From: Octopus vulgaris
Taxonomy: Eukaryota
Assembly: GCA_951406725.2 (NCBI GenBank)
Contig: OX597828.1
Span: 15,004,001 to 15,068,000, forward strand
DNA length: 64,000 nt
Direction: 5' to 3'
Below are positions 46,640 to 61,455 of this stretch, piece by piece (the first letter of the stretch is position 1; every line of letters starts with the position of its first letter). The notes beneath the pieces were generated by a model. The model was not told where the DNA came from, made no database searches, and saw only the letters and a program-made list of their open reading frames with translations. Made by a program: the position numbers and the translations under genes.

Positions 46640-48320
46640 CACATTATCTTCTTTGTTATTCTGTTTATCCCTGTTTCTCCGAAGAAAAATCTTGAATGAA
46701 ACAAATTACAGATACAAGGTGCATGAAAAAAAAAACATCAAATATTTTCCTATAAGGAAGACATAAAATTTTTTATGAAAAATGATCAACTTCAGATGCT
46801 CCTTCACATAGTCAAGCAATTTAGTGATGACATCAAAGCTACATTTGTCTCAGGAAATCTTTGAAACATGCATTATCACTCTAGATAGATACCAAGAAAA
46901 AAGAATTGGAACCTGCAAACAGTTATAAGTATATAAGTATTTGTGAAGGAGATGGAATTAAGTACTCGCTAATGAGAGTAAGAATAAGATATACAATAGT
47001 AGAGTAAGAGCTATTCTGCAAAGCAAGAAGAATGGTAGAAACAAAATCAAGGTTATAAACACATTAGCCATGCCTATAATCACATACAGTTTCAAAACAG
47101 ATCTAGTTAGAGTATACCTTCCAAAAAAAAGATGGTGGTCAAGCATTAATACAACTCTCATTGAAAATTGTAACTATGGAACTTCGTGTCTGCAATGAGC
47201 AAATGACTAGATATTAAGGCTGTTTCTGAAACATGAAGATACCAAACAATTGCAGACACTGACAAAAAAGTTGCAATAATATATCTTTGTGAAATGCAGC
47301 TAGGTGAACCAGTACTCAAAAAAAATGTGTCCTCAACTGACAAGGCAAATCAAATAAAAAAAAAATATAGCCAAATAAACCAGCCTCCAATACAGTAAGG
47401 GAAAATGGATACAAATAATCTGAACCAGGGACCATGATGCAGATCAAACTCTTACTTGGATGCTCTGCTCTCAAGCTAGAAACTGCTACTCAGGATCAGT
47501 TCCTTCCAACCTGGAATTACCAGCGTAATGTTCTGAAATATGAAAGCAGCCCATTGTGCTGTGTTTGTGGAGAATATCCAGAGACAATCAGCCACATAGT
47601 TTTTAGATGCAGCCAAGCAGCACCTATAGAGTACTTGCAATGGCATGACATGGCATCTCAGTACATACATGTTTCAATCTGCTGCACACACAACTTCCTT
47701 CATAAAGAGAACTGATAGGAACATAAACCACCACAAGTTGTCCAGAATGTTGAAGGTGCCATCATTTGGAGTTTCAATCTTTTAAAGACTGATCAAGAAA
47801 TTCAAGATAACTGACCAGATATCATTGTGAAAAACTTTGAAAAGACATGTTTTGATGGATGTTGCTGCTCCAACTGACAGAAACATCTCCGAAAATGTTT
47901 GAGAGACTGAGCAAATATAAGGACTTGGAGACAGAAATCAGAAGTATGTGGTATCTCAAAGCAACATTATCTATTGTCACTGAGATGCTTTGAATGATAT
48001 GAAAAGGAGCAAACAAATACACACAACCAAATTCCTGGCAGCCCCAAAATAAGTGAATTGTAAAAGATCAGGCTTATGGGTACCTCACATATTTTACATA
48101 AATTTCTCTCCGCATAAATACAATCTTATTCATTCAGTCTTATTTTGAATTTTATAAAGAGAGTTTTTTTTATATATAAGATACATCAGTTTTTTCCAAC
48201 CGCATGACACCTCACCTATTTGCATCATTTGATGCAAAAGTCTGTTGTCCATTGCAACCTCTAGTTGAGACTTGGATACAGCTTGTGTAAATTAATGCAA
48301 AATCAAATAATAACAATAAT
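46640..48320 (+). mobile_element. Older decayed R4/Dong-like LINE fragment
   Basis: NKIKVINTLAMPIITYSF, zinc knuckle CCVCGEYPETISHIVFRC, PDII-like endonuclease motif; ends in taataacaataat. Confidence 0.72.
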
Positions 48321-49232: not shown

Positions 49233-49803
49233 GTGTTTACTGAAGGGAACAGCAAAAAATGTTAGTTTTTATGCTTTGTTTTTAATTTTCATATCACCCA
49301 TTAGTTAATAGATGTGCTCAGTCAAAGCTTATAAAATACGGCCAACAACACATGGCATAAAACTAACAAGACACAGAATGATAAAGTTTTTTTTCCAAAT
49401 AACTGTATTAACATTTGTTAAAACTGTACCAATGTAGTAAAGCAGAATAATATGATAGATAATGTTTTTGATTTTGCTCTATAATTAATACTGTTTACTT
49501 TTTAACATAAAGTAAAAAATAACAGACAACTCACAAATTAGAAGACATAAGGATATAAAATCTTTCAGATGTTTCTTGAGATTGCACCTTTAATATTACT
49601 TATATGGTCTTTTACGTCATCTCAAGGTTCCAATGGTTCAGAAAATTATACGATTCCATCTTACCATTTTCAAAATAACCATGGAATTTCCACAAGGTGC
49701 TACTCGTATAATAATTATTTGAAATAAATATTCTTGTTGTTGGTTAAAGAAATTTAGACAAAACGAAAACAAAAAGAAAAACAAAAGCTTCTGTCACATT
49801 AAA

Positions 49804-51264
49804 TCAATCCAACTCTGTTGTCAAATTAGCCAAATGTTGAAGTTTAAGGTCTTCTTGTAGTTCTTGGATCTGAACAGAATATCTGTCATTTGGTTTGAAG
49901 AATATCTCATTCTGAACATCAGTGGCAGTACTTTGACTACTATTATCTTTGTCACATTCTTTAAATTTCAGATCTTCCTTTCTTGGCCTCTCTGGATCTT
50001 CCGTGCTTAGTTTCTCTGGCACTTCCTTTTGCAACTTCATTAGATTTTCCAATTTTATCTTCTCTGGATCTTCTGTTTCCAAACTTTTCTGATCATTCTT
50101 TTTCAATTTCCATTTCCTAATCCGATTCTTAAAAGAGATTTTCCGAATATAACAAGTTTTCTTTACAGTTTCTCTTGGAAATTCTTTCAGATTCTCTTTT
50201 AACCAGATTTGTTTCTTTTTAGCAGGATACTGAGACTGGTTTTTCCATAAGTAAGTTCCAGTAATCTGATTTATTGAGCGGTATTTCAGAGAACAACATG
50301 TTAAATATTTTATTACAACTGTCTTAATTTTTAAGCAGCTCTTAATCTTTTGTGCTCGGTCAAAAGCAGAAAAATTATATTCTGTGTATTTGCAGAACTG
50401 TGAAGAATATTCTTCAGATAATTTGCACCGATTGATTAATAAGGTAAAATATTGCAAAGAGTTGCTCTCTTTTGTCTTAGCAGCATTTTGCTGCAATTGT
50501 ATTTTTAACAAGTAATTTTGGTTATTATTAAATACTGACCCACTTAATGAATTAAAATGAGCAACTGAGTGTAATTTAAGAGCTGGTTTTAAATTATTTT
50601 CATTGTGGCTATGTAGAAATAATGTATTGTAATTTTCAGTGCCATTTCCAGAGAACAGTGCCATTTTAAGAGCTGTTGAGTTATTTTGAAAATTCAGATG
50701 AGCTAAATGTTCTCCTGAGTGGCTTAAGAAATGTTCTTTGAATGCAGCATCAATTCCACTAGTAATCAAATGAATCTTCTTTCTCAAATTCGTATTCCTA
50801 AGATCTGCCAGAGGACCTTTGTTACAGAAATATCTGTTTGAAGAGGAAGGAGAGCAGGTGGGGGGCAAGGGAAATTTCTGTTTCATTTTACAATTACTAA
50901 TGTCATTAACAGTCATATAATTAATATCCATTGAATGATTAGAATAAATGGATAACTTAATGTAAAATTTACATTTCAGCTTCTTCCCGTTTGAATAAAA
51001 ATTTATCATCTGAGTAATTTTCCAAAACTTAAATGAAATATTAATCAAATAATTTAAGGTAAGAATCTTACTTGGCACTTGTGCATCTGTCAGAAATAAA
51101 TTTAATATAGCACGAATAACTTCTTCAATTTCACTGCTGTTTTCAATTCTGGCTTCAACATTTGTCAAGGGATTAGTATCTTTATACATTAATTTGATTT
51201 TATACAAATGCTTATCATATTTTACTAAGCAACTTTGGTTATAAACTCCAGAAAACATTTTCAT
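49804..51264 (-). CDS. MAJIN: MAJIN-like protein (MAJIN domain plus long basic/low-complexity C-terminus), 486 aa, uninterrupted ORF
   Basis: A 1.5-kb open frame in very AT-rich DNA, first ATG at 51264. The N-terminus MKMF..YKIKLMY..EIEEVIRAIL..TLNYLI..W..INF..L..LSIY aligns by eye with recalled mammalian MAJIN LKPF..YKFKIRY..ELEDSVRVVL..TEHFIV..W..LKF..L..FTLY at near-identical spacing. A candidate acceptor ttattttttcag-like tract ends at 51456. Confidence 0.68.
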   Translation of the reverse strand: MKMFSGVYNQSCLVKYDKHLYKIKLMYKDTNPLTNVEARIENSSEIEEVIRAILNLFLTDAQVPSKILTLNYLINISFKFWKITQMINFYSNGKKLKCKFYIKLSIYSNHSMDINYMTVNDISNCKMKQKFPLPPTCSPSSSNRYFCNKGPLADLRNTNLRKKIHLITSGIDAAFKEHFLSHSGEHLAHLNFQNNSTALKMALFSGNGTENYNTLFLHSHNENNLKPALKLHSVAHFNSLSGSVFNNNQNYLLKIQLQQNAAKTKESNSLQYFTLLINRCKLSEEYSSQFCKYTEYNFSAFDRAQKIKSCLKIKTVVIKYLTCCSLKYRSINQITGTYLWKNQSQYPAKKKQIWLKENLKEFPRETVKKTCYIRKISFKNRIRKWKLKKNDQKSLETEDPEKIKLENLMKLQKEVPEKLSTEDPERPRKEDLKFKECDKDNSSQSTATDVQNEIFFKPNDRYSVQIQELQEDLKLQHLANLTTELD

Positions 51265-51847
51265 AAATTGATTTGAAGGAAAATAATGTAAATTAAATGC
51301 AATCACTTCCTAATATACTTAATGAATTCAATTTGGAATACAAAATTTGATTTTATAGAAAAATTGAACAAATGAAAGAAAATATAAGACCTTAATATAT
51401 ACTCTAGTGACTGTTTCCAGACGCGATAGCTTATTCCATGAATGTTCAAAATTATCTGAAAAATAATGAATAACATATAAAAATAAAAAGTATCATATAA
51501 CAACCAGCTTTATATACTTGAGAAATAACACAAGTTTATACAAAATTGGTAAAAACAGCAATTAATTGGCAATTATTTGGAACCAAGTTTTGATAATTTT
51601 TTAGGAATCTTCTGTTCTTTGAAAATTTAGTCAAATTTGTATCAGGTCAAAATATTTGCGTAAAAAAATTTAGAGTATAATAGTTTTATTTTGACCATCT
51701 TAAAATACATCTTACAGCAACAATGTACATAAAGGTTGTCACTAATGAAAGGGTGGATTAAAATTGTGTGCTGCTGCTTAGGTTTAAAACCTTGTCCCAG
51801 TCAAAACAAATCTCAGTTTCATGGTTGGAGAAATGTCTATATTTATA

Positions 51848-52219: not shown

Positions 52220-52860
52220 TCCAGTAGTTGGAAATAAGGAAAAGGATGAGCCGTCCAAGAAAATAACATTCTTCCACTGCTCTAGGGACCAATTCTGTAG
52301 GTTTTTACTCCACTCTAAACACTTTGCAACGTTTGTTTTGAAAGTAGTGGTTTTCTGATTGCAGCCCTTCTGTGATATCCAACTTTGTGCAGCTCCCAGC
52401 GAACAGTTTTTATGGAAACTGGATTCTCAAGGTGGTCATTAAGCTCTGCAGTAATTTTGGGAGCTGTAATTTTTGTGATCCTTTCCAACAATTTGCATAA
52501 GAGTCCTGCAGTCCCTATCTAAAAGTTTTGGTTTTCTTCCTGAGCTTTGTTTTGACAAGGAGGTTTTTCCCTCTTTCTCAAAGGCTGTCAATACATTTAA
52601 GACAGTACTTCTTGATACACCAAACATTTCGGCTGTTTTCGTTACACTAGCACCTGCCATACAAGCACCAACAATTTGACCTCTTTGAAAGTTCAATAAA
52701 TCTGTCATTTTAACTCATTTTAATTACTTTTATTCTGATGATATCTGAAAAGAAACAGCAATTTTAGCAAAACATTAAGTGACACTAATAGTAAATCAAA
52801 AAACATAAAAATAAACAAGCTTTTGATGATTTTTATAGATATTATTTTGTCCAACCCCTG
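52220..52860 (-). mobile_element. Tc1-like DNA transposon, 5' half (pseudogenised transposase)
   Basis: TA|CAGGGGTTGGACAAAATAAT terminus; ORF 52439-52708 has an HTH (FQRGQIVGA...TAEMFGVSRSTV) and GRKPKL; downstream WKNVIFLDGSSF resembles WxxVxFSDES. Confidence 0.88.
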
Positions 52861-59849: not shown

Positions 59850-61455
59850 CGTGCGTACACATGTTCATAACTCCTTGCTTCAAGATTGTGCATTAGTTGT
59901 AAGCAAATGTCATTGTCGTTCATTTGCAGTCTTCCATGAATTTGCAGCTTGGCTAACGTCTGTGCTAAGCACGCATGCACGGAATTGACTCCTTTGTTCC
60001 CCAGACAAGATGAGTATAAAAAGAAAGAATTATTCCATGGAGTACAAGAAAGGAATCGTGGAAGAGTCACATAACAAGAATCTCACGGCATTCTGTAAGG
60101 AGAAGATGTTGGATCTCCGAATGGCTCGGAAATGGCGAGCAGAGTACGATTATCTCAGCAGACAGGTGGATGAGGAGAGTGCTAAGAAGTGCAAGTGTGG
60201 ATCAGGTCAACAGCCATTATTTATGGAGCTGGATGGCTGACTGAAGAACAAAGACTATGATTGTACGCAGGGCTGATCTTCAAGAATTTGCTTTTGCAAT
60301 GGCAACACAGTTGGATCTATTCCCAGAGATATTCAAAGTATCAATTCATTGGTTGGATAACTTCCTTTGGCGATATGAGCTCTCTCTAAGAAGATCGACA
60401 ACACTGTTCAAGCTGGAGGATGCTGAAGTGATTCAACGTGCACTTGCATTCAAGTCCTTCATTGATGGTATCGACTTTTCTAAATACAATCTCTCCAATA
60501 TAATTGCTATGGATGAGACTGCAGTATTTATGGGCCAAGGATCTAAAATGACAATTGAACAGACAGGTACCTCATCAATCTACATAGCTTCAACAGGTTA
60601 TGAAAGTACAAGAGTTACTTGTATTTTAGCAATTCATCTTAATGAAACAAAAGTCTCACTGCTTACCATCACTAAGGGCAAAACAAAAAAGAGAAAATGG
60701 AATGAGATTCAGGCGTTTATGTCCCTGAAACGGAGAATGGCTTGGTGCACACAAGTTGTTATAAAGAAAATGGGTTGATTTAACTATACCACTTGTTTTA
60801 CATGGTTCTCAAAGAGATTTTTTTAGTCTGGGATTTGGCCAGTACTCATCGTGCAAAAGATATGGAAACCTTCCTTTCTGAAAGAAGAATTGACCACATA
60901 ATGATTCCCGCGGGAATGACTTCAGATCGACAAAGATTATTTGCAGATAGAAGTGAATTGAACATAGTATGGAGAGAAATCAGTGTGGAAGCTTTGTCAA
61001 ACCCAACCTCCAAGAAGTTGTGAATTGGGTGAAGAATTCATGGAATAAAATTACAGACAGCTGCATTGCCAATGCACTACAGGGAGGGTACTTGGACAAA
61101 AAGTGTCCATTTAAGGAAAGTTATAATGCCAAACATCAGAGATTGGGGTCCATGGTTCTACAGGAAATGGATTTGCAAGAAATTCAGTCTGAAGTGCGGG
61201 GTTTGATGATTTATGATGATGTTCCAAAAGAGTACTTGACTAAAAACCATAAGCAAATAAATAAACTTTTGATAACTAAAAACACAGGTTTCCTTTTTAT
61301 AATTTTTCCCTTTTACCTGAGGACATGAGACTTTTATGTCTTTCTTGGATTTTTTTCTGCAAAAATATAAGATATCCCCTGAAAATAAGCCCTAGTGTGT
61401 TTTTTGGATGCAAAATTAATATAAGACTGGGCCTTATTTTCAGGGTAACACAGTA
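59850..61455 (+). mobile_element. pogo/Tigger-type DNA transposon with frameshifted transposase
   Basis: ORFs 60010-61328 encode a CENP-B-like HTH (RKNYSMEYK..IV), AMDETAV, LVWDLASTH and IPAGMTS; right end ttattttcagggtaacacag|TA. Confidence 0.9.

Follow-up and report, generated by a model that had tools for sequence, protein, structure and literature searches.

An open reading frame of 486 codons on the minus strand of the window, by which is meant the whole 64,000-nucleotide stretch of Octopus vulgaris DNA analysed here, is supported as the octopus orthologue of MAJIN, with which it forms a reciprocal best match; it has no introns, and it is the only copy detected. The preferred reading, to which a probability of about 0.8 is given, is that this orthologue would serve as a tailless telomere-envelope adaptor, reaching TERB2 via its beta-grasp domain, telomeric DNA via basic surfaces, and the nuclear envelope via a protein partner. 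The observations from which this reading starts are the frame itself, its homology, the single detected copy, the exons of TERB2 and the missing tail. The features of the locus are as follows.

49804..51264, minus strand: coding sequence of the proposed octopus MAJIN orthologue, uninterrupted, 486 codons, its frame kept in other octopods
50941..51264, minus strand: residues 1-108, predicted MAJIN beta-grasp core, the TERB2-binding domain in human (AF2 and Foldseek)
50254..50523, minus strand: residues ~248-337, conserved among octopods, unalignable to other relatives, possibly helical (residue identity counts)
49915..50244, minus strand: residues 341-450, lysine-rich and least conserved linker (30 K+R and 20 D+E in 110 residues)
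49837..49887, minus strand: residues 460-476, DR-x(11)-KLQ motif common to mollusc MAJINs (19 of 21 proteins)
49744..49803, minus strand: 19 hydrophobic in-frame codons after the TGA, then TAA, a candidate read-through tail (hydropathy)
49476..51420, minus strand: span without splicing in contigs of public runs whose type is not on record, a probable single-exon transcript

The frame runs from an ATG at 51264 to a TGA at 49804 and is the longest of the 11 ATG-started ORFs of at least 100 aa in the window, the runner-up having 173 aa; the chance expectation for a frame of this length, given the base composition, is about 4e-12. The first-pass annotation had described an uninterrupted 486-codon ORF in AT-rich DNA free of transposon motifs, and this description holds: the strand is minus, the GC content is ~31%, and Pfam detects neither a transposon nor any other family within it. 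The frame is conserved in relatives: an Octopus bimaculoides record of 493 aa is 88% identical to it, another octopod record of 486 aa 81%, and a whole-length search gave three proteins from 6331 candidates (O. sinensis at 99%, O. bimaculoides at 82%, and one further). In two other octopods, 104 and 93 of residues 1-108 are identical, as are 34 and 33 of the last 36 residues, 84 and 77 of the 90 residues 251-340, and 82 and 74 of the 110 linker residues 341-450. Conservation is thus highest at the two ends of the protein, in the N-terminal domain and over the final 36 residues, which fits the expectation for a gene under selection. The linker may be equivalent to the DNA-binding basic patches of MAJIN. 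For the octopod segment at ~248-337, a counterpart elsewhere was not detected, an Atlas search with residues 240-360 returned nothing usable, and helices appear only in a model with a pLDDT of 30. At 49895 and 50273 the window departs from all four public runs, and at 50167 from three of them, which may reflect polymorphism, a related species or the assembly. The X10 and X11 contigs are also nine bases longer than the window across the gene.

Among the 113 ORFs of the window, the 77 that were scanned yielded no exons of a host gene or a neighbour, only transposon fragments. These include a zf-RVT fragment at 47419-47715 on the plus strand (E 4e-5), likely a LINE relic; a helix-turn-helix fragment at 52439-52714 on the minus strand (HTH_28, E 6e-8), probably the remains of a transposase; and a Tc5-type transposase DNA-binding fragment with short frames at 60245-61328 on the plus strand (E 1.5e-4), likely a broken DNA transposon.

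The octopus protein is not recognized directly by the profile of its family. Pfam returned no match for the ORF, whether whole or as residues 1-120, the 27-bit cut-off of PF15077 not being reached; a PDB sequence search with the ORF gave no match; PF15077 did not find the MAJIN locus in the octopus genome; and when shorter homologues were sought with residues 1-125, neither of the two candidates scored. A profile of two octopod N-termini, run against 1.84 billion protein representatives, gave six matches at E<=0.001. Of these, three score above the cut-off of the Pfam family (27.9-28.7 bits), a fourth matches below it, and two have no MAJIN match. A second round retrieved 14 proteins from 8000 candidates scored, and when the 11 full-length ones were scanned with Pfam, two were over the cut-off and three matched below it. 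The 27 bits are reached by five of 18 scanned relatives (P0008, P0009, P0010, P0028 and P0030), and P0002 and P0027 have no PF15077 match. The profile check proposed in the first-pass annotation has a divided outcome, in that a direct Pfam match is absent while the mollusc relatives retrieved with the octopod sequence pass the MAJIN cut-off. With a nine-sequence profile, the three human MAJIN chains were recovered at E 5e-8 to 3e-7, the next match lying at 0.4. A five-sequence profile without the Pfam-positive relatives (three octopods and the two closest relatives) places MAJIN first of 177,635, at an E of only 0.09, and its positions 2-55 align without a gap to human residues 4-57, which bears out the gapless alignment of the first 54 residues that had been made by eye. 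The T-x11-W-x7-F spacing claimed at the same time (T69, W81, F89) is invariant in all 16 aligned relatives, and it aligns to the human chain.

The fold is a prediction and points to the same family. The AF2 model of the N-terminal domain (pLDDT 87.6, pTM 0.80, from a 16-sequence alignment) leans on the relatives, since 13 of the 16 alignment rows are non-octopod; it shows the beta2-alpha-beta3 order described for MAJIN in PMC6297230. Foldseek gave seven matches at E<=0.001, all of them MAJIN-TERB2 entries, with 6J08 as the best (E 2.2e-7, TM 0.76/0.81), and an exhaustive structure search placed 6GNX at Z 13.4, with an rmsd of 1.8 Å over 97 residues. The predicted core, homologous to residues 1-112 of human MAJIN, thus superposes on the human structures (6GNX, 6J08), the structural comparison that had been suggested as a check. 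A full-length AF2 model from four sequences had no confident fold (pLDDT 29.8). Atlas leads of FAR1/FLYWCH type for the N-terminus (best 0.84, all below 0.9) were dropped after the fold match. Within the core, the human dimer-interface residues P64, F73 and Y75 align to octopus K66, N75 and S77, and the loss of these residues is common to most mollusc relatives. At the level of sequence, the human 2:2 dimer interface is not conserved in octopus MAJIN; as this interface is lost, the octopus core probably forms a 1:1 complex or dimerises in another way. Two of the six human basic-surface residues are kept (K24 and K26), and the core is still basic, with 16 K+R and 8 D+E.

Orthologue and retrocopy are two origins of the ORF that the first-pass annotation had left side by side. 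The N-terminus of a Pfam-positive limpet MAJIN had the ORF as its sole match in the 2.8 Gb genome (E 7e-8). Six genome searches, with the two halves of the ORF, the N-termini of two relatives, the C-terminus of a relative and PF15077, gave no second locus, and seven weak matches seen on the way (L002-L005 and L038-L040) were set aside as chance, with at most 9.9 bits on the 16-sequence profile, where the ORF has 135. A spliced parent with short exons, which searches that score only the best candidates can miss, is unlikely. As no second or spliced copy was found, the ORF is better regarded as the orthologue than as a spare retrocopy, and the intron-containing paralogue that had been proposed as a search target did not appear. 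It is very unlikely that the ORF is a retrocopy or a derived paralogue, decaying or with a new role, while a conventional spliced MAJIN lies elsewhere in the genome. Such an origin would agree with the long octopod branch (1.33 changes per column), with the lost tail and changed interface residues, and with the absence of introns from the octopus gene, Hydra MAJIN having exon junctions according to PMC7227075; it is opposed by the empty genome searches, by the low scores of the side matches, and by the conservation among octopods, which peaks at both ends of the protein, in the N-terminal domain and across the closing 36 residues. The orthologue half of the earlier alternative is therefore retained, on profiles, fold and reciprocal search, and the half that implied a surviving spliced parent is not. 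The protein is, as had been claimed, about twice the mammalian length (486 versus 254 aa), but this is nothing special, since its mollusc relatives have 402-938 aa.

Contigs assembled from public runs make it probable that the gene is read as one exon. One X11 contig of 1947 nt aligns whole to 49483-51420, two X10 contigs cover 49476-51420, and X2 covers 49554-51382, the last two runs likewise unspliced. Depth over the ORF bins is 22-52 in X10, X11 and X2, compared with 0-5.3 in two bins at 46775-47642, and the assemblies of these runs total 51-87 Mb versus a 2.8-Gb genome. This contrast in depth and the small totals are a hint, though no proof, of RNA runs, and transcription of octopus MAJIN is probable. 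Vertebrate MAJIN is multi-exon. For the introns of other mollusc MAJINs, two metagenome scans gave no true locus, and one locus that did emerge (L035) is an unrelated, bacterial-looking stretch. ENA contigs of 45-868 kb carry the full-length relatives, a hint that these too are intronless, if their genes were called without introns.

A partner for this protein is encoded in the same genome. Two TERB2 exons, collinear with each other, were picked up with PF15101 on the contig that carries MAJIN, ~12 Mb away, and the exons recognized are as follows.

G000:C15 ~2988168-2988282, minus strand: first coding exon of TERB2, L016 (exon search)
G000:C15 2987447-2987532, minus strand: TERB2 exon, L007 (collinear)
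G000:C15 2979057-2979197, minus strand: TERB2 exon, L009 (collinear)
G000:C15 2961976-2962070, minus strand: last exon of TERB2, L018 (MAJIN-binding segment by homology)

Three of the exons match PF15101 at positions 22-47, 49-94 and 177-204 (E 4.5e-5, 5.9e-5 and 0.003), each of them singly below the Pfam cut-off, and the exons are collinear, on one strand and bordered by AG/GT. The last exon, 17 kb downstream, was the top match of a residue-class pattern across 190 kb; a phmmer search with it failed to recover the TERB2 peptide of the PDB, and no exon for the linker came to light. Two open frames of 271 and 409 residues within or close to the TERB2 locus, near G000:C15 2984384 and 2928669 on the minus strand (L016/L022), may be mariner transposase-like and Penelope-like. 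A TERB2 with its C-terminal MAJIN-binding segment is present in the same genome as the MAJIN ORF. Octopus TERB2 ends 13 residues past the phenylalanine of its F-x-P and has no C-terminal basic patch, which human TERB2 needs for DNA binding (PMC6297230). In the human structure, as given in the same source, R14 of MAJIN pairs with D191 of TERB2, and F192, P194 and Y199 of TERB2 form a wedge. In the octopus peptide F-x-P is kept, D191 is replaced by Leu and Y199 by Cys, in a register inferred from F192/P194, and human R14 aligns to octopus C12, in a column with Arg in 12 of the 16 rows and Cys in the three octopods and one other. A joint loss of the two halves of the salt bridge is suggested by this alignment, as a single case. 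For the third member of the complex, a cephalopod TERB1 candidate without the MYB domain is mentioned in PMC7227075.

The C-terminus provides both additional support for the family assignment and the principal departure from it. The DR-x(11)-KLQ motif occurs in 19 of 21 proteins; as P0031 and P0037 lack it, not every mollusc protein has this end. When a profile was built from the final 75 residues of ten more distant proteins, with the octopods and the two relatives nearest to them left out, the ORF scored E 1.2e-8 per sequence, and the motif is independent support in that it was not used in finding the relatives. No mention of it was met in the accessible portion of the MAJIN literature. In all five octopod records (three clusters) the protein ends 10 residues past the motif, whereas the 14 other motif-bearing records all continue for 29-52 residues, with a basic cluster and an amphipathic stretch. 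Most of the non-octopod tails have TP, SP or QP ahead of the last basic stretch. Octopus MAJIN ends LANLTTELD, and its best 19-residue hydropathy is 1.07, inside the core; by this measure a C-terminal transmembrane helix is absent. The amphipathic tail of the other molluscs also lacks a classic hydrophobic helix, and a transmembrane domain outside mouse remains to be identified according to PMC7227075. What is new here is the loss of the C-terminal tail in octopods, as read from the predicted proteins.

Such a tail might be hidden behind the stop codon. It is distinctly improbable that MAJIN is still membrane-anchored through read-through, or A-to-I editing of UGA to Trp, into the 19 hydrophobic codons that follow, and it is more doubtful still that octopods have shifted the anchor behind the stop so that one or the other process switches between a soluble and a tail-anchored adaptor in meiosis. 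Coleoid cephalopods do practise extensive A-to-I recoding; the post-stop frame has a 13-residue hydropathy of 2.56, and the extended C-terminus would end about where those of the closest relatives end. A frame as long and hydrophobic occurs in only 1.5-2.8% of shuffled 3' regions, and at only 1.9% of 7548 post-stop-triplet positions in the window. However, TERB2, the one control gene, has a longer and more hydrophobic post-stop frame (22 codons, 2.71; L018, minus strand, below 1976). It follows that T-rich 3' regions readily yield such frames, and that read-through of MAJIN is only a lead. The long contigs of X10 and X11 show four differences, all of them away from the stop, so that the majority sequence is unedited there, contigs being prone to drop rare variants, and the post-stop frame has no basic cluster like that of the relatives' tails. 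A by-product of the T-rich 3' region is the more likely explanation of this frame.

It is hardly credible that the domain belongs instead to another member of the MAJIN/SLX4IP beta-grasp group, for instance a DNA-repair adaptor akin to SLX4IP: SLX4IP comes second among the structural matches (Foldseek E 1.3e-3; exhaustive search Z 8.8, the next at 3.8), is regarded in PMC12804970 as homologous to MAJIN in structure, and gave no clear octopus locus in a PF15744 genome search, but MAJIN fits far better (Z 13.4; rmsd 1.8 versus 3.2 Å), relatives match the MAJIN profile and none match PF15744, and sequence profiles retrieve MAJIN chains.

For the reading preferred here, that of a tailless MAJIN orthologue, the steps of its action are drawn from work in mouse, human and Hydra. 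Octopus MAJIN would be expressed in the germ line and act in meiotic prophase as an adaptor between telomere and nuclear envelope, within a TERB1-TERB2-MAJIN chain. Its predicted beta-grasp domain likely binds the C-terminal peptide of TERB2, as in other animals, and its basic surfaces would bind telomeric DNA. In view of the missing membrane segment, it is proposed that the envelope is reached through a protein partner, most likely a SUN-domain protein; this choice is favoured because mouse MAJIN and the N-terminal part of SUN1 co-precipitate (PMC7509418). The candidate site of contact is either the DR…KLQ motif or the octopod segment 248-337. If octopus MAJIN still tethers telomeres, lipid anchoring by MAJIN would be dispensable and contact with the LINC complex enough, the DR…KLQ motif of the mollusc MAJINs being a candidate site for it.

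The gene has been poorly served by public annotation. Both named first-found octopod models (286 and 336 aa) are truncated at the N-terminus, one 461-aa octopod record begins at residue 26, and a newer O. bimaculoides model (493 aa) is complete yet labelled 'uncharacterized'. The suspicion that automated pipelines would leave the gene uncharacterised was right, as the named records carry that label and the MAJIN domain is partly or wholly missing from three models. A putative meiosis gene of the octopus, so far without annotation, can now be named together with its TERB2 partner, and the domain that defines it is clipped in several public models. MAJIN in molluscs had already been reported (PMC7227075). 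No octopus or tailless MAJIN was found in the literature covered, which leaves aside most subscription papers and the supplement of PMC7227075, where an Octopus MAJIN may be listed.

Compared with known systems, the octopus protein shares with human and mouse MAJIN (PF15077; 6GNX, 6GNY, 6J08) the ~110-residue beta-grasp core, as predicted and at 16-18% identity, equivalents of K24 and K26, a long basic linker, and a TERB2 with the F-x-P wedge in the genome. It differs from them in its 486 rather than 254 aa, in lacking a C-terminal hydrophobic helix and introns, in the replacement of P64/F73/Y75 by K/N/S and of R14 by Cys, and in four changed basic-surface residues out of six. The SLX4IP N-terminal domain (9QED/9QEE) belongs to the same beta2-alpha-beta3 grasp subgroup, but with 9% identity, no sequence-profile link, and a DNA-repair role with XPF. 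Another comparison is with the mollusc MAJINs (Patella caerulea KAK6177680.1, Patella vulgata XP_050412116.2, P0005-P0007, P0009, P0010, P0029, P0030, P0032-P0036, and P0008 and P0028, which also have the DR-x(11)-KLQ motif just before the tail). They have in common with it the N-terminal domain (24-38% identity), a long variable middle, DR…KLQ near the C-terminus and mostly non-aromatic equivalents of F73 and Y75, and they differ in the 29-52 residues past the motif, versus 10 in octopods, and in having no alignable counterpart of the octopod segment. Octopus MAJIN is thus a divergent orthologue of the kind that the known distribution leads one to expect; its one real departure is the loss of the tail, and it offers an example from nature of a MAJIN devoid of the very part after which the family is named.
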